A stretch of 31,504 nucleotides of DNA, from assembly GCF_000015225.1 (NCBI RefSeq), contig NC_008696.1, positions 1-31,504 on the forward strand, read 5' to 3'. A program made the position numbers and the translations under genes. The DNA comes from Thermofilum pendens Hrk 5 (lineage in GTDB: Archaea > Thermoproteota > Thermoprotei > Thermofilales > Thermofilaceae). Of this stretch, positions 19,750 to 27,818 are shown piece by piece. The notes under the pieces are model-generated. The model saw only the letters and a program-made list of their open reading frames with translations, made no database searches and was not told the origin of the DNA. How positions within the stretch are numbered: the first letter of the stretch is position 1; the number at the start of each line of letters is the position of its first letter.

Positions 19750-19773
19750 TTCTCGCCTCACCGAGGTATAGGT

Positions 19774-19824
19774 AAACGGGGTAGCTAATAAGGATTTCGT
19801 TTAACTTTTCACAGGGCTATACGT
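19774..19824 (-). promoter_or_regulatory. Type-B promoter block copy 1
   Basis: aaacggggtagctaataaggatttcgtttaacttttcacagggctatacgt. On the minus strand it reads ...AAACGAAATCCTTATTAGCTACCCCGTTT. Confidence 0.7.
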
Positions 19825-19985: not shown

Positions 19986-20183
19986 CTATTTCCTGGGCTT
20001 CCTAGCCTCTATGTAGACTCTCACGCCTCTCCTCATTTTCCTAGCCGTGTACGGTCTACTCCTGCGCACCTGTAGCCCCATCCTTATGAGTAGCTCTTCG
20101 ACTGCGCTCACTATCAGCCTGTATTCCTCCTCGCTTATCCTTTCCTTGTCCGCGATAATCCTGATTTGCACGTCTCCCCTCAC
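19986..20183 (-). CDS. Small basic protein (65 aa) translationally coupled to the helicase
   Basis: GTGA overlap with the helicase stop. Confidence 0.6.
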   Translation of the reverse strand: MRGDVQIRIIADKERISEEEYRLIVSAVEELLIRMGLQVRRSRPYTARKMRRGVRVYIEARKPRK

Positions 20184-22081
20184 TGCAATCCCCTCCTCGC
20201 GAATATCGCCTTTAGCTTGTGAAACGCCGTCTCCTCGTGCGTGTAAGCCACGTAGACGTAGAACAGCGTGGCTTTCGTCTTTCCAGGCGCCGGTCTCAAT
20301 AGCCTCCCTGCTCTCTGTATGAGCTGTCTGTCAGTCGTACCGCTCGCTAGCATTACGCCTACGCTTACCTCGGGTACGTCTACTCCCTCGTCTAGCACTC
20401 TGCACGTCACTAGTACTCTGAAGGTTGAGCCCCACTCTTTGAGTATCCTCGCGCGCTCGGTCTTAGGCGTCTTGCTGAGTATCGCTTTTCCTCCGAGTGT
20501 CTGGGCTAGCTTTAACGCCACGTCTTGGCTCTCAGTCCACACTAGTACTCTGTTGTGCTCCTGTGCTAGCCTGTTGATAAGCGCTAGCGCCGAGCTCCAC
20601 TTAACAGGGCTCCTCGCGGCTAGCTGTTTCCTTAAGTTTACCAGCTTCATCAAGTCCTTCTTCAAGTGTTTCTCCCCGTCCTCTATGCGCCTGCTTAGGC
20701 GCCTAATCTTCTCCTGTATCTCCTCGTACTGCTGGTAGAACTCCTGTGTCTCCGTCACTCTTATCCCCACTAGCTCGATTGGCACCATGTAGCCTTGCTC
20801 CTGTAGCTCGCTCGGGCTTACCTCATAGCGCTTAGGTAGTAGCATGTCAAGCACCCACTGCTCTTCTGTGTCCTCGCGCTTGTGCGTCGCGCTAAAGCCA
20901 TAGATGTGCACGCCTAGCCTAGCCAGCCTCGCCAGAGTCCTCGCTAGCTCCCTAGCCCCTGCATGATGGCTTTCGTCAACTATCACTGCGAAAGGCGTGT
21001 AGCCCCGCTTAACCTCGCTCACGAAAGTGTTGTAGACCATTACCGTGATTAGCTCGCCTAGCCCTTGTCCTCGCCTGTTCACTCCCCCGTACTTCACGTT
21101 CACTCTGAGCCTCCACTCCCTCTCAAAGTGGCTAGCCCACTGCTCAGCCAGCACTTGCGTGGGCACGATAATAGCCGTGTCATAGCCCCATAGCGCTAGG
21201 TTCACGGCTAGCGTGCTACCGATAAGCGTCTTTCCGCCGCCTGTGGGGATTTGCACGGCGCCGTGCGCGCTGAGTAGCCATCTAAGCGCTATCCTCTGGT
21301 AGTCGCGCATTTTCTTCGGCACGACAATTTTAGCCACGCGTATTTTCCTAATGCGCTCGCTTAAAACTCTAGCCGTGTAGTCTCTCTCGGTTAGCCCCTG
21401 CTCCCTTAAAAGTTCTTTGAGCCTTTCCTCGTCGCCTGCTAGGTCGGCTAGCAGTTCATAGCCCCATATCGACGTGTCCACGCCTAGGATTATCTGGGTG
21501 CTGGCTTCTTCCTCGGTTAGCTCTAGCTCGCTTATGGCTTGTGGGGCTAGGATTTGTCTCCAGTCTACGTACTGCTCTACGCCTAGCTTTTGGGCTAGCT
21601 CTGCGTATTTGTCTTTTAGGCGAGGATTCTGGGCTAGGATTTGCTTAGCTTCCTCGATTTCCTCGGGGCTAGCCTCGCCTAGCTCTACCTTGTCGGCTAA
21701 CACCGCGAGGCGGCTCTCAAGCCATGAATTGTACTGCGCTTCGACTTCCTCGGGGCTATTATTATCAGAATAATAAGCCCCGCCTAGCCATTTAGCGAGG
21801 ATTTTTTCGACGATAGCCAAATTCTCGCCTAGCGAAAGACTAGAATCTACGGCGTCGCATATGTCGTTGACGATTTCCTGTGTGTCTAGCCCTTTAGCCC
21901 TTATAAGGGCTAAGCGCGAGGCTATAGCCCTAGCTATTTCGAATTCAAGGCTAGGGGCTAAATCGCGGTTACGCCTTATGGCTAGGCGCAATCGCTCTAC
22001 CTCGCTATTGTAGGCGCTTAGAGGATTAGAGTCGGGGCTAACTTCTTTTCCTATAGCCCCCCACGCCTTTTTCTCTCGCAT
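20180..22081 (-). CDS. Superfamily-2 DExH helicase (633 aa; XPB/Rad25 or type III restriction res-subunit-like core) with a ~250-aa unknown helical N-terminal domain
   Basis: Motifs appear in order: I PTGGGKT, Ia IIVPTQ, II VIVDESHH, III FSAT, V TCRVLDEGVDVP, VI QRAGRLLR. TTTTAAGC lies ~26 nt upstream of the ATG. Confidence 0.9.
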   Translation of the reverse strand: MREKKAWGAIGKEVSPDSNPLSAYNSEVERLRLAIRRNRDLAPSLEFEIARAIASRLALIRAKGLDTQEIVNDICDAVDSSLSLGENLAIVEKILAKWLGGAYYSDNNSPEEVEAQYNSWLESRLAVLADKVELGEASPEEIEEAKQILAQNPRLKDKYAELAQKLGVEQYVDWRQILAPQAISELELTEEEASTQIILGVDTSIWGYELLADLAGDEERLKELLREQGLTERDYTARVLSERIRKIRVAKIVVPKKMRDYQRIALRWLLSAHGAVQIPTGGGKTLIGSTLAVNLALWGYDTAIIVPTQVLAEQWASHFEREWRLRVNVKYGGVNRRGQGLGELITVMVYNTFVSEVKRGYTPFAVIVDESHHAGARELARTLARLARLGVHIYGFSATHKREDTEEQWVLDMLLPKRYEVSPSELQEQGYMVPIELVGIRVTETQEFYQQYEEIQEKIRRLSRRIEDGEKHLKKDLMKLVNLRKQLAARSPVKWSSALALINRLAQEHNRVLVWTESQDVALKLAQTLGGKAILSKTPKTERARILKEWGSTFRVLVTCRVLDEGVDVPEVSVGVMLASGTTDRQLIQRAGRLLRPAPGKTKATLFYVYVAYTHEETAFHKLKAIFARRGLQ

Positions 22082-22660
22082 ATTCCTCGCCTAGAATATA
22101 CGCCTAAGCTTAAAACGTGGTATTAGTAATCGACGTTATTAATCGACTCTGGGCTAAAAGAAGTTAGCCAAAATCGCCTATTAGCAATGGCTATAGCCAA
22201 TAGCAGTAGCCATTAGCTATAGCCATTAAGCATTAGAAAAAGAGTCGAATCGCAATTCGACTAAAGGCTATTAGCCCAAAAACGAAACAAAATTCGACTC
22301 TTACGCTATTATTCGAATTGTCAAAACAAAAATCGACGATAGCCTATTAGCCTTTAGGCTAAACGCTTATCGACTCTTACTAATCGACAAAAAGCTAGCC
22401 GAATTTAGCCTAAGAGTAAACGACTATAGGCTAAAGCTCTTTAGCCTATTGGCTATTAGCCCAAAAACGAATAGCCATTCGACTATAGGCTATTAGCCCA
22501 TTGGCTAAAGGCTATTCGACTCTTACGCTATTAGCCCCTATTCCTCTCGCTCTAGCCCCTATTAGCCCTAGCCCTATAGCCCCGTAGAGGTAGAGGAAAA
22601 GGCGAAAACCCTCTAGCCCCTAGGCTAGCCTGTATCCCTTCTTTCCTCCTTTTTCTTTTT
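22082..22660. repeat. Repeat-dense, visibly AT-richer non-coding region; putative replication origin with iterons
   Basis: No credible ORF. The 19-mer TTCGACTCTTACGCTATTA occurs at 22293-22311 and 22515-22533, with variant ATCGACTCTTACTAATCGA near 22369. The 21-mer GGCTATTAGCCCAAAAACGAA occurs at 22266-22286 and 22451-22471. There are at least 8 copies of CTATTAGC(C). The region lies immediately upstream of the helicase gene. Confidence 0.55.
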
Positions 22661-23096: not shown

Positions 23097-23123
23097 GCGA
23101 GAAAAAAAGAACAGTTTTAGGGG
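23097..23123 (-). terminator. Conserved 3' block / oligo-T terminator (minus strand CCCCTAAAACTGTTCTTTTTTTCTCGC)
   Basis: Directly follows the stop of 23125..23532 and contains a T7 run. Confidence 0.6.
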
Positions 23124-23532: not shown

Positions 23533-23555
23533 GGCTTTTCGCCGAGAATAGAGTA

Positions 23556-23606
23556 AAACGGGGTAGCTAATAAACCTTTCGTTTTACACAAAACGGGGCT
23601 AAACGC
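23556..23606 (-). promoter_or_regulatory. Type-B promoter block copy 2
   Basis: aaacggggtagctaataaacctttcgttttac...ggggctaaacgc. The TATA TTTATTAG lies ~35 nt from ATG 23532. Confidence 0.75.
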
Positions 23607-23693: not shown

Positions 23694-23723
23694 GCGAGAG
23701 AGAAAAAAGAACGATTTTAGGGG
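23694..23723 (-). terminator. Conserved 3' block / oligo-T terminator
   Basis: gcgagagagaaaaaagaacgattttagggg follows the stop of 23724..24191. Confidence 0.6.
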
Positions 23724-24191
23724 TTATTCTTCGCAAAAGCCTTCCCAATCCTCCTCTTCCTCCTCCCAGTCCTCCTCGGCGCCTAGGTAGTAGTTGACGA
23801 TGTCCTCGAAGTCCTCGTGGAATTCGACCATCACGTGAATGTCTAGGTCGCTCCACAGCTCAATGACCTCGCCGACGTATCCGAGGAACCACAGGATAAC
23901 CCCGTCTCCTTCAGCCCCCTCCCAGACCTTCAGCTCGTCGTGCTCCTCTATTATGTCCTCGAAAAACTCGCCCTCCCAAATCTCCCTGAGGTGGACGATT
24001 GCGAAGGTCTTGTCCTCGGCGTAGTCGTGACCAAAGGTAAGGACGTAGTCGTAGATATGCTCGGGTGCGGCTAGGTACACGCGCACGTACCTGACGGGGG
24101 AATCGACCTTCTTCAGCTGTGCTCCCCTGTAAAGCTCTCTGACCCTCTTTATCTGCTCCCTCGTTTTCTCAACGGTTGTTGTCACGCTCAT
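23724..24191 (-). CDS. Hypothetical acidic protein (155 aa) with EEDWEEEEEDWEGFCEE tail, cassette gene 2
   Basis: Type-B promoter block lies upstream and a conserved 3' block lies downstream. Confidence 0.65.
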   Translation of the reverse strand: MSVTTTVEKTREQIKRVRELYRGAQLKKVDSPVRYVRVYLAAPEHIYDYVLTFGHDYAEDKTFAIVHLREIWEGEFFEDIIEEHDELKVWEGAEGDGVILWFLGYVGEVIELWSDLDIHVMVEFHEDFEDIVNYYLGAEEDWEEEEEDWEGFCEE

Positions 24192-24203
24192 AGCGGGGTA
24201 TAG

Positions 24204-24257
24204 AACGCGGGGGTAGCTAATAAAGGTTTCGCTTTATTTTTCACGGGGGCTAAACGA
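24204..24257 (-). promoter_or_regulatory. Type-B promoter block copy 3
   Basis: aacgcgggggtagctaataaaggtttcgctttat...gggggctaaacga, upstream of 23724..24191. Confidence 0.75.
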
Positions 24258-24383: not shown

Positions 24384-24412
24384 GCGAGAGAAAAAAAGAG
24401 TAATTTTAGGGG
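24384..24412 (-). terminator. Conserved 3' block / oligo-T terminator
   Basis: gcgagagaaaaaaagagtaattttagggg follows the stop of 24413..24997. Confidence 0.6.
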
Positions 24413-24997
24413 CTAATACTCCTCGTCCTCCCAGTCCTCCTCATCCCAGTCGATGGGCTCGTATTCCTCTCCGTAGTCGTCGAAGTCCTCTTCTTCCTCT
24501 TCGCTAGCCGAGTCGTAGCAGACGCGAGAAGAGTCACACTCGCAGGGTAGCTCGTCCTCGTCTCCGGGCTTCTCCCAGTAGGGTCTAAGAGTGCCCCAGT
24601 CGAAGCCCTCGATAAGCTCCAAGGCTTGAGCCAAGGAGAGCCTCCTGTAGACCCATACCTCGGTCACGATTTCCTCCACAGCCCTCTGAAGCCACACGGG
24701 GGCACACCTAGACGCTTGAACCTTCACCCACCTTTTGCCACCGCGACGGAAGAGCCCCACGTAGACGGCGCGCCTGACGACCGTGCTGTCCGTGATGCCG
24801 TCTCTTCGCCACACGTCGAAGGTGCCCGGTACTCTGAAGCGGTGCTCGCCTATGCGTCCGGCGCAGTAGCCGCCGTCTCCGCAGGGGTAGATGCCGCGCC
24901 ACACGGCTAGCCGTGTGGCTCGGTAGCTCTCGACTGCGTGCTCGGTGCACAAGCCCTGCCTGTCGTCGCAGTTGACCCAGCAGTCTAGTAGGCTCAT
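24413..24997 (-). CDS. Cys-rich protein (~194 aa) with an acidic Trp/Tyr tail, cassette gene 3
   Basis: I prefer ATG 24997 (GTG 25006 is the alternative), ~32 nt from the TTTATTAG TATA. The N-terminus has 6 Cys. The tail is EEEEEDFDDYGEEYEPIDWDEEDWEDEEY. Confidence 0.65.
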   Translation of the reverse strand: MSLLDCWVNCDDRQGLCTEHAVESYRATRLAVWRGIYPCGDGGYCAGRIGEHRFRVPGTFDVWRRDGITDSTVVRRAVYVGLFRRGGKRWVKVQASRCAPVWLQRAVEEIVTEVWVYRRLSLAQALELIEGFDWGTLRPYWEKPGDEDELPCECDSSRVCYDSASEEEEEDFDDYGEEYEPIDWDEEDWEDEEY

Positions 24998-25015
24998 GCT
25001 TATCACGTAAGAGTG

Positions 25016-25066
25016 AAACGGGGTAGCTAATAAACCTTTCGTTTAACTTTTCTCGGGGCTAAACGC
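25016..25066 (-). promoter_or_regulatory. Type-B promoter block copy 4
   Basis: aaacggggtagctaataaacctttcgtttaacttttctcggggctaaacgc, upstream of 24413..24997. It directly abuts the DpdA-like stop. Confidence 0.75.
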
Positions 25067-25848
25067 TAAAAGAACGATAAAATCGAGGGCTGAGACCCCC
25101 ACCTCCTCGCTATCTCCTCGTAGCGCGAGATATAGGCGCGTATAGCCTCAGCCCTCTCCTCGATATCGCTACACCAGCTGTTCTCGCACCACCGGTACAT
25201 AGCGCTACTATCGAAGCTGAAGAACCGCCTAGTCCTCCCAGCCACGCGCGCCACAGCCCTGAGGCTCGGCCCGAAGACGTGGAAAGGCTTAGCCGTCACG
25301 GAGTCAAAGGCTAGAATCATCTTAGCCAAGACCCCCCACCTATTGCTGGCACAGGTGGGGCCCAAGGCTACAAGCTCGAACTCGTCGTATAGCTCCCTGT
25401 TCTCCGAGTACACCCTGACGGGGCTCAAGGGGTCGTCCTTCTTACCCTGCACCACGGCTACAGCCGTGCCCGGCAGGCTATCGACGCGCGTCAGCCACCG
25501 CTTGATGCTCTCTAACGTCTTCTCGACGTTGAGGGGGTAGAATTGCTCCATCCCCGGGTAGTCCGAGGGGTAGTCCGGAATCACGTAGTAGAACTCCTCG
25601 ACCCTAGCCTGAGCGTGAACCCTAGAGATGAACCTAGCATAGCCGTACTCGAAGCCCGAGGGGTACTCGAAGCCCCCCGACTCCTTAAACACCTTGTGGA
25701 CACCCGTATCGACTAAGACGCCCTCAGGTCTACACTTCTTCAGCCACTGCTCCCAGTCGTAGTACACGTATGGATTGACAACTACATGGGGGTAGCACAC
25801 CCCAGCGCTCCTCAACCTACTCACGCTTATGTAGAGCCGCGGAACCAC
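25066..25848 (-). CDS. dpdA: tRNA-guanine transglycosylase (TGT) superfamily protein, DpdA-like candidate DNA 7-deazaguanine transglycosylase (260 aa)
   Basis: TGT-like motifs appear in order: LVDTG (DSG position), IPDYP, VVQG (GIVQGG position), ALGP, HVFGP, FDSS (FDSAS/FDCV position). The N-terminal ISVSRL resembles DpdA N-termini. There is no C-terminal Zn subdomain. Confidence 0.65.
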   Translation of the reverse strand: MVPRLYISVSRLRSAGVCYPHVVVNPYVYYDWEQWLKKCRPEGVLVDTGVHKVFKESGGFEYPSGFEYGYARFISRVHAQARVEEFYYVIPDYPSDYPGMEQFYPLNVEKTLESIKRWLTRVDSLPGTAVAVVQGKKDDPLSPVRVYSENRELYDEFELVALGPTCASNRWGVLAKMILAFDSVTAKPFHVFGPSLRAVARVAGRTRRFFSFDSSAMYRWCENSWCSDIEERAEAIRAYISRYEEIARRWGSQPSILSFF

Positions 25849-26120
25849 GGGGAAAAAGGCGGGCTAGGCGAGAAAAAGCCAACCTTTTTGATTTTCACCC
25901 TGACGCTCTCGGCTACGTCCTCCTCGGTGTAGTGTGTCTCGCTCTCCTCGTATACGTAGAGCAGGCGGTTCCACCTCGCGATAATGTAGTCAACAGTCCT
26001 CCAGACCTCCTCCTCGCCGTTCTTGAAGGTGACGTCGCAGAACACCATGGGGAAAGAGGGCTCGCTCCAGTTGTACTCCGTTGAACGCTTGACCCTGACG
26101 GTTGTTTTCACCGCCTTCAC
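25827..26120 (-). CDS. Hypothetical protein (97 aa)
   Basis: GTG start lies downstream of type-B-like block 26134-26184. It overlaps the DpdA-like gene by 22 nt. Confidence 0.55.
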   Translation of the reverse strand: MKAVKTTVRVKRSTEYNWSEPSFPMVFCDVTFKNGEEEVWRTVDYIIARWNRLLYVYEESETHYTEEDVAESVRVKIKKVGFFSPSPPFSPWFRGST

Positions 26121-26133
26121 CGGGTTAGATAGT

Positions 26134-26184
26134 GAAAGGGCCGGCTAATAAAGCTTACGCTTAACCCTTCTCGGGGAAAAACGC
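26134..26184 (-). promoter_or_regulatory. Type-B promoter block copy 5 (more divergent)
   Basis: gaaagggccggctaataaagcttacgcttaacccttctcggggaaaaacgc, upstream of 25827..26120. Confidence 0.6.
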
Positions 26185-27606: not shown

Positions 27607-27629
27607 GAGAGAAAAAAGACTTTATTTTA
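27607..27629 (-). terminator. Related oligo-T terminator block
   Basis: gagagaaaaaagactttatttta at the stop of 27627..27818. Confidence 0.5.
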
Positions 27630-27818
27630 GAGGATTAGCTGGGGCGTGTACCCGGCTCCGCCTACCGGGCAACCCTTAGCCCGGGCTATGTTCTCGATGT
27701 ACGTAGCCGCCTGTACCTGTCCCATTAGGCGGAAGCCGTTGGCTAGGCTTTCAAGCGCCTCGCAACTGGCGAGGGCGAGGGTGTTTCTGTCGAGCTTGAC
27801 CTTGACCACGCTTGTCAC
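27627..27818 (-). CDS. Small protein (63 aa), own promoter
   Basis: CTTTAAAG lies 24 nt upstream, and GAGGT directly precedes the GTG start. Confidence 0.55.
   Translation of the reverse strand: MTSVVKVKLDRNTLALASCEALESLANGFRLMGQVQAATYIENIARAKGCPVGGAGYTPQLIL

Follow-up and report, generated by a model that had tools for sequence, protein, structure and literature searches.

We propose that an open reading frame (ORF) on the minus strand of pTPEN01, the complete 31,504-bp plasmid of the hyperthermophilic crenarchaeon Thermofilum pendens, encodes a DpdA-like enzyme of the tRNA-guanine transglycosylase (TGT) superfamily (Table 1). The window analyzed here is the whole plasmid. This family assignment is almost certainly correct, and by analogy with known DpdA enzymes we consider it probable that the protein acts on DNA as a guanine transglycosylase of the DpdA type, protecting the DNA of the element by inserting a 7-deazaguanine obtained from the host. 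An earlier note on this DNA had proposed a DpdA-like member of the TGT superfamily from sequence motifs alone, and this core claim was upheld by profile searches, profile-profile comparison and structure prediction. The 260-amino-acid (aa) ORF was present as described, on the minus strand and with a GTG start. The public NCBI model of the gene is a 252-aa ‘hypothetical protein [Thermofilum pendens]’, 100 % identical, which starts at 25824, 8 codons downstream of the 260-aa start at 25848. Residues 3-8 of the 260-aa form align with the conserved hydrophobic-aromatic beta1 strand of the homologs and were modeled with a predicted local distance difference test (pLDDT) value of about 91; the longer start therefore appears better supported, since the shorter one would truncate strand beta1.

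Searched as a single sequence, the protein produced nothing meaningful in Pfam, NCBIfam, PHROGs, PADLOC or PDB sequences, and only 9 relatives were found in an index of 5.8 billion proteins. We built a profile from 9 close homologs and searched 1.84 billion representative proteins exhaustively, recovering 309 proteins at E<=1e-3, 121 at E<=1e-10 and 44 at E<=1e-30. All motif and Pfam counts given here refer to a sample of 106 diverse relatives. Within this sample, 39 proteins matched the Pfam family PF23859 (DpdA), with a best value of 1.4e-27, and 14 matched PF01702 (TGT), with a best value of 1.2e-8. The Pfam search suggested in the earlier note was positive for some of the relatives but not for the plasmid protein itself. 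One relative, P0100 (245 aa), scored 66 bits against PF23859, for which the gathering cutoff is 27, and matched by tblastn about 400 mycobacteriophage genes that carry the annotation ‘queuine tRNA-ribosyltransferase’ or ‘dpdA-like’.

The plasmid protein was connected to the phage enzymes by a chain of profile-profile comparisons made with hhalign. The alignment of its own clade (A3) matched that of the P0100 group (A5) over 245 columns, the full length, with a probability of 99.94 % (E 3.1e-37). The P0100 group in turn matched the DpdA of mycobacteriophage Scarlett (gp44) over 231 columns (98.6 %, E 6.3e-16), and the alignment of the whole family (A2) matched the genetically validated DpdA1 of phage CAjan (gp35) over 172 columns (94.6 %, E 6.8e-8). 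All three of the predicted catalytic Asp residues stayed in register along the chain. Comparison of A3 or A5 with the single E. coli TGT sequence was insignificant, and the link to TGT therefore rests on structure and on the Pfam matches of the relatives. Neither profiles A1 and A2 nor P0100 matched a TGT or DpdA entry when searched against PDB sequences. The window and the protein had no match among INPHARED phages or PLSDB plasmids by megablast or tblastn. A single-protein search for related loci in viral and genome contigs recovered none, and the plasmid itself was not recovered from the GTDB genome collection, even when its own protein served as the query.

The AlphaFold2 model, made from a 9-sequence alignment, had a pLDDT of 88.4 and a predicted template modeling (pTM) score of 0.88, and contained eight strands alternating with helices in a beta/alpha barrel. 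The earlier note had proposed comparing such a model with TGT and DpdA structures by Foldseek. All of the top 50 PDB matches were TGT or DpdA entries, led by the Zymomonas mobilis TGT (4.5e-6) and the DNA preQ0 insertase DpdA (7ui4, 1.5e-5). Among the viral models of BFVD, the best match was a mycobacteriophage queuine tRNA-ribosyltransferase (8.2e-8), and the matches included a Sulfolobales rudivirus ‘putative queuine tRNA-ribosyltransferase’ (6.9e-4) and DpdA3 of Cellulophaga phage phiST (4.4e-3); generic TIM-barrel glycosidases ranked below the TGT- and DpdA-type matches. The model has the fold of the TGT superfamily, a (beta/alpha)8 barrel whose closest neighbours are TGT and DpdA.

The active site could be read against bacterial DpdA (bDpdA), in which Asp95 is the acid/base, Asp130 and His181 are base-edge ligands, Asp256 is the nucleophile, and Phe99 and Leu236 stack on the base (PMC10164549). 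The three Asp residues of the TGT-superfamily active site are present as D47, D92 and D213. All of the landmarks that the earlier note had named (VLVDTG, D47; IPDYP, D92; VVQG, Q134; ALGP, G163; HVFGP, G193; SFDSS, D213) were found at the residues given, and a recount confirmed its spacings of 45, 42, 29, 30 and 20 residues. D47 aligned with the Asp of LDSGGF in Scarlett DpdA and of LDSGAF in CAjan DpdA1, D92 with the Asp of QDW (Scarlett) and LDG (CAjan), and D213 with the Asp of aDS (Scarlett), CDSS (CAjan) and mFDC (E. coli TGT). Q134 aligned with the Gln of iiQGs in E. coli TGT and of LQG in Scarlett DpdA; the residue is His in CAjan, as it is in bDpdA. The H-x-F-G motif aligned with vHgFG (Scarlett), LHAFG (CAjan) and LMGVG (E. 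coli TGT). The motif HVFGP was thus present as the earlier note had it, but the weak alignment with E. coli TGT placed Met260 opposite H190 and not G193, a shift of three residues. In the AlphaFold model the motifs sit at the C-terminal ends of successive strands, beta3 to beta8, as expected for a TIM-barrel active site. The catalytic motifs are near-invariant across the 106 diverse relatives (Table 1) and are therefore not a product of chance.

Table 1. Coordinates of the dpdA-like gene of pTPEN01, its predicted active-site codons and its transcription unit
Feature	Position	Strand	Reading	Evidence or conservation
dpdA-like ORF	25066..25848	-	260 aa, GTG start; putative minimal TIM-barrel TGT/DpdA superfamily member	ORF scan, AlphaFold model, Foldseek, homology chain
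Asp47 codon (VLVDTG)	25708..25710	-	predicted general acid/base; equivalent to bDpdA Asp95 and Z. mobilis TGT Asp102	kept in 103/106 relatives
Asp92 codon (IPDYP)	25573..25575	-	predicted base-edge recognition Asp; equivalent to bDpdA Asp130 and TGT Asp156	kept in 106/106
Gln134 codon (VVQG)	25447..25449	-	predicted second base-edge ligand; equivalent to TGT Gln203	kept in 105/106
His190-Val-Phe-Gly193 codons (H-x-F-G)	25270..25281	-	strand beta7; position of TGT Met260 and bDpdA Leu236 (base stacking)	H190 kept in 105/106, F192 in 101/106, G193 in 102/106
Asp213 codon (SFDSS)	25210..25212	-	predicted catalytic nucleophile; equivalent to bDpdA Asp256 and TGT Asp280	kept in 104/106
ORF97	25827..26120	-	97 aa; directly upstream of the dpdA-like gene, overlaps its start by 22 nt; probable first gene of a two-gene unit	
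Promoter-like element	26128..26184	-	purine-rich AAGCGTAAG then TATA-like TTTATTAG, about 27 nt upstream of the ORF97 start	repeat family D8, alignment A6
Next copy of the 57-nt promoter-like element	25010..25066	-	abuts the dpdA stop codon and heads a 197-aa ORF; 3’ boundary of the ORF97-dpdA unit	

The closest known counterparts are the phage DpdA1 proteins, namely CAjan gp35, the DpdA of phage 9g and the mycobacteriophage Rosebush group (for example Scarlett gp44). They share with the plasmid protein the TIM-barrel fold of the TGT superfamily, a length of about 250-300 aa, and the motifs D-[ST]-G, D, H-x-F-G and [SC]-x-D-S in identical order. The phage DpdA1 enzymes work without DpdB, and dpdA stands alone in the genomes of Scarlett, Orion and 7-11. 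The plasmid protein differs from them in an identity below about 20 %, in being missed by PF23859, in the presence of His51 in place of Phe/Tyr four residues past the first Asp, and in having only 47 residues after the nucleophile Asp213. The carrier is the plasmid of a hyperthermophilic archaeon and not a virus, and the activity of its enzyme is a prediction. We also considered membership in DpdA4 (PF20314/DUF6610), which includes gp69 of halovirus HVTV-1 and is likewise a candidate DNA 7-deazaguanine transglycosylase of archaeal mobile elements. This was rejected: neither the plasmid protein nor any of the 106 sampled relatives matched PF20314, and the family connects to PF23859 instead.

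The bDpdA of Salmonella enterica Montevideo (7ui4), which serves the Dpd restriction-modification system as preQ0 insertase, has the catalytic Asp triad in common with the plasmid protein (Foldseek 1.5e-5, query-normalised TM-score 0.57), and the double-displacement mechanism proposed for it (PMC10164549) resembles the one suggested here. It is a larger protein of 413 aa with the insertions Ins1, Ins2, Ins3 and Ins8 and a CXCX2CX22H Zn site, requires the ATPase DpdB, and belongs to a dpdA-K cluster (PMC10164549), whereas the plasmid protein has none of these. The Zn motif (CXCX2C...H) and an Ins8-like insertion were absent from the plasmid protein and from every one of the 106 relatives, and the roughly 250-aa family as a whole lacks the structural Zn site typical of TGT and bDpdA. 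The validated CAjan DpdA1 has no Cys/Zn cluster either, and the Zn site is therefore not required for phage-type DpdA activity; the Scarlett DpdA keeps a compact GCSHAKCSNC. The earlier note had taken loss of the Zn subdomain as a mark of the DpdA branch, which is right for phage DpdA1 but wrong for bacterial DpdA, where the site is kept.

Several observations weigh against the proposed identity and function. The plasmid protein matched neither PF23859 nor PF01702 at E<=10, falling short of the gathering threshold of PF23859, and its clade alignment taken alone matched the single Scarlett DpdA sequence weakly (E 0.023), although in identical register. Since the direct match of the clade to phage DpdA is weak, the assignment from profile comparison is transitive, each link of the chain appearing strong. 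The query-normalised TM-scores from Foldseek were moderate (0.55-0.63). The protein has neither the Zn site nor the DNA-contacting Ins8 of bDpdA, so that the predicted enzyme would have to contact DNA by other means. Some members of its clade have lost catalytic residues: in A3, P0033 carries D47T, Q134P, H190Y and D213Q, and P0003 carries D47E, suggesting inactivated or repurposed copies. As to function, a Pfam scan of the 52 ORFs of the plasmid found no QueC, QueD, QueE, FolE, ParB-like DpdB or DpdC, and no genes of the preQ0 pathway, DpdB or DpdC were present within 10 kb of the relatives. Thermofilum species are reported to have lost purine and cofactor biosynthesis. The DNA of the lone-DpdA mycobacteriophage Orion is unmodified, as neither the phage nor its host makes preQ0; phage 7-11 has traces only.

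That the best PDB matches are tRNA-guanine transglycosylases raises another reading, namely that the gene encodes a minimal plasmid-borne enzyme that acts on tRNA, or a TGT-fold enzyme of other chemistry, such as a DNA glycosylase that removes a base. The Z. mobilis TGT (2pot/1p0d) and the archaeosine TGT (ArcTGT) are top fold matches, D213 is equivalent to the Asp of the FDC motif, and Gln134 resembles Gln203 of TGT, unlike the His of bDpdA and CAjan. However, the Gln is also present in this column of Scarlett DpdA, and the nearest sequence relatives are phage DpdAs and not cellular TGTs. The plasmid protein further lacks the Zn subdomain, the tRNA-gripping insertions (Ins3/Ins8) and the PUA and C-terminal domains of ArcTGT, and the set of nucleophile, acid/base and base-pocket residues is complete, which points to base exchange rather than simple excision. 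We consider a tRNA substrate or another chemistry very unlikely and retain a DpdA-type activity on DNA as the probable function.

The close relatives were found on metagenomic contigs and in two metagenome-assembled genomes (MAGs), a Guaymas Thermoprotei archaeon and a Desulfurococcales archaeon. A search for loci with A3 recovered the two MAG loci only, and one with A5 recovered a single high-GC phage-like contig that was uninformative; the contigs of P0011, P0100, P0021 and P0048 are only about 1 kb long. The contigs of the relatives resemble mobile elements: small ORFans are numerous, and are accompanied by ParA, ThyX, a VirB11-type ATPase or type IV CRISPR genes (Csf1, Csf3). We evaluated the possibility of a conserved partner gene and rejected it, as dpdA was the sole gene common to the plasmid and the loci of the relatives, and no neighbour was consistently common among the loci. 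Because no neighbour is shared, the dpdA-like gene behaves as a self-contained cassette, passing from one archaeal mobile element to other, unrelated ones. This behaviour fits an enzyme that needs no partner, as the 9g DpdA alone works in E. coli. In one locus (L010, 957-8186; also L011), the relative P0005 lies between the type IV CRISPR-Cas genes Csf1 and Csf3 and a gene for a 721-aa DUF1156 methyltransferase-like protein; the latter gene starts 20 nt past the P0005 stop, and the two may together serve DNA modification on what resembles a plasmid.

From the analogy to bDpdA and to the DpdA1 of phages, we suggest that the protein belongs to the DpdA branch as a minimal base-exchange enzyme, a (beta/alpha)8 barrel that contains no Zn. 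Asp213 would attack C1’ of a deoxyguanosine in double-stranded DNA, and Asp47 would protonate the leaving guanine. A free 7-deazaguanine, most likely preQ0 from the archaeosine precursor pool of the host, would then resolve the covalent enzyme-DNA intermediate, so that the plasmid, and possibly the chromosome as well, would carry a 2’-deoxy-7-deazaguanosine. The gene would be co-transcribed with ORF97 from a plasmid-specific leaderless promoter. The likely benefit would be the shielding of the element DNA from restriction-type nucleases of the host or of competitors.

The weak link of the proposed function is the inferred supply of the base by the host. The absence of queC, queD, queE and folE from the window, as claimed in the earlier note, was borne out by the Pfam scan. 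A phmmer screen of the plasmid for the preQ0 pathway with CAjan proteins was also negative, a result of low sensitivity, as CAjan DpdA likewise missed the DpdA homologs; no tRNA genes or Rfam families were found in the whole window. Phage 9g offers a precedent for a DpdA that acts by itself: in E. coli this enzyme uses the preQ0 of the host to modify plasmid DNA with 2’-deoxy-preQ0 (dPreQ0). In CAjan, deletion of dpdA abolishes both the dPreQ0 modification and restriction resistance. The DNA of the bicaudavirus STSV-2 carries 2’-deoxy-7-carboxy-7-deazaguanosine (dCDG), and the origin of that base is unexplained.

The gene could also be a genuine DpdA homolog that is silent in T. pendens because the host neither makes nor imports a 7-deazaguanine, a passenger active only in other hosts. 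The unmodified DNA of Orion would be a parallel, and the extreme loss of purine and cofactor biosynthesis in Thermofilum genomes, the lack of que, folE or transporter genes on the plasmid, and the movement of the cassette between unrelated mobile elements all agree with it. The catalytic residues are nevertheless all intact in the T. pendens copy while degenerate relatives exist elsewhere, which argues for ongoing selection, and strong conservation of the ArcTGT family has been described throughout the archaea, Crenarchaeota included, implying that preQ0 is generally available. We therefore regard a silent gene as unlikely and an active, DNA-modifying enzyme as the better explanation. A more ambitious version, also unlikely as a whole, would make the family a DpdA lineage in its own right, minimal and free of Zn, that is specialised for the mobile elements of hyperthermophilic archaea; in T. 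pendens it would modify the plasmid and perhaps the chromosome with a base that the purine-auxotrophic host makes or salvages from the community. In this version the inserted base might be a derivative other than preQ0, comparable to the dCDG of STSV-2, and the removal of N7 might give a side benefit against heat-driven depurination.

The plasmid encodes a tyrosine integrase, a superfamily 2 (SF2) helicase, ribbon-helix-helix (RHH) and toxin-antitoxin-like proteins, and a domain shared with Pyrobaculum spherical virus, together with mostly ORFans. The helicase (633 aa, 20180-22081, minus strand) lies 3 kb from dpdA on the same strand and matched the PADLOC model of PbeA (1.6e-46) and, weakly, that of DpdF (5e-4). 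We therefore considered whether the dpdA-like enzyme could provide the modification in a compact system of restriction-modification or exclusion similar to Dpd, in which it would mark self DNA and the PbeA-like helicase would act on unmodified incoming DNA. Many solitary pbeAC loci have been described near base-modifying genes, and bacterial DpdA is part of such a system (PMC10164549). The PbeA match is nevertheless confined to the helicase core (residues 255-626), and the N-terminal 250 residues carry no HKD nuclease motif. The Pfam and PADLOC scans found no PbeB/C/D, DpdB/C or other Dpd components on the plasmid beyond the weak DpdF-like hit, which stems from the generic core of an SF2 helicase. 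The helicase and dpdA are separated by three ORFs, each promoted separately, and by a repeat block that resembles an origin, and no locus of a relative combines DpdA with a helicase of this kind. We rejected a complete PbeABCD or Dpd defence system, as the helicase has only the core and no HKD motif, and even a compact system appears highly improbable compared to an enzyme acting on its own.

The dpdA-like gene has no copy of a promoter-like element in its own upstream region and is likely transcribed with ORF97, judging from the 22-nt overlap of the two genes and from the next promoter copy at the dpdA stop codon. ORF97 had no Pfam or PADLOC match, and no homolog of it adjoined any DpdA relative. 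The 57-nt element (AAACGAAAG..TTTATTAGCTACCCCGTTT) is present in five copies directly upstream of minus-strand starts, at 19768-19824, 23550-23606, 24200-24256 and the two positions given in Table 1, heading ORF97, ORF197, ORF155, ORF135 and a 36-aa ORF. Each consists of a purine-rich box followed by TTTATTAG, with the start codon about 25-30 nt downstream; this short distance suggests leaderless mRNAs, and the copies imply a co-regulated set of such transcripts.

Other features of the plasmid were recorded alongside these. The products of ORF197 (24413-25006, minus strand) and ORF155 (23724-24191, minus strand), downstream of dpdA, have 55 % and 45 % Asp+Glu in their last 40 residues, respectively; the tails could be DNA mimics or protein-interaction tails, and neither protein had a family match. 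A 27-nt family (GAGAGAAAAAAAGA..TTTTAGGGG) occurs just 3’ of minus-strand stops at 1758-1784, 23097-23123, 23698-23724, 24386-24412 and 27607-27633, gives an oligo-T tract on the coding strand, and resembles a terminator module of archaea. The perfect palindrome (G)CCACAAAATTTTGTGG(C) has 8 exact copies, or 14 with up to 2 mismatches, at seemingly intergenic positions (4286, 5195, 5637, 6480, 6795, 7717, 9225, 10480, 13794, 18876, 19828, 23624, 27461 and 28976), and could serve as operator for a dimeric regulator encoded on the plasmid, or as a TATA-like element that works in both directions. The copies at 4286, 5195 and 5637 lie in or around a minus-strand block at 3846-5609 of four adjacent small ORFs (3846-4226, 4306-4677, 4677-5198 and 5211-5609), which are paralogs with 28-46 % identity. 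An AT-rich segment at 22246-22533, within the kilobase of lowest GC on the plasmid (0.46), contains four copies of a 66-nt repeat with GGCTATTAGCC palindromes and looks like a replication origin.

The established subfamilies are bDpdA and DpdA1-4, genomes with a lone DpdA are a recognised class, and 16 archaeal viruses, 12 Ligamenvirales and 2 Bicaudaviridae among them, have already been listed with DpdA and/or genes for G+ synthesis. The dpdA-like gene of pTPEN01 does stand alone without que genes, as the earlier note stressed, but its novelty was overrated there, as the DpdA of crenarchaeal viruses and lone-DpdA phages had been described. What is new is a divergent, unannotated, plasmid-borne copy in a cultured hyperthermophile. 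The homologs in crenarchaeal viruses (rudiviruses such as Sulfolobales Beppu rod-shaped virus 1, and STSV-2) likewise belong to mobile elements of hyperthermophilic Thermoproteota and combine a TGT-fold gene with the absence of a preQ0 pathway. The structural match of the plasmid protein to the rudivirus homolog was weaker than that to mycobacteriophage DpdA (6.9e-4 compared to 8.2e-8), and tblastn of the virus collection gave no match. STSV-2 encodes ArcS, whereas the T. pendens plasmid does not.

The analysis provides a functional prediction for an NCBI ‘hypothetical’ protein that was missed by Pfam, NCBIfam and PADLOC, and defines a Zn-free, roughly 250-aa DpdA-like clade on plasmid- or virus-like elements of Thermoproteota from hot environments. 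A minimal thermostable DNA guanine transglycosylase could also serve as a DNA-labelling tool. As T. pendens Hrk 5 is a cultured type strain, the prediction is directly testable. If it is true, it would bear on the question raised by STSV-2, the source of the 7-deazaguanine base of such an element; beyond phages, haloviruses and the Dpd islands of bacteria, 7-deazaguanine would then also be part of the DNA chemistry of an archaeal plasmid and its host.

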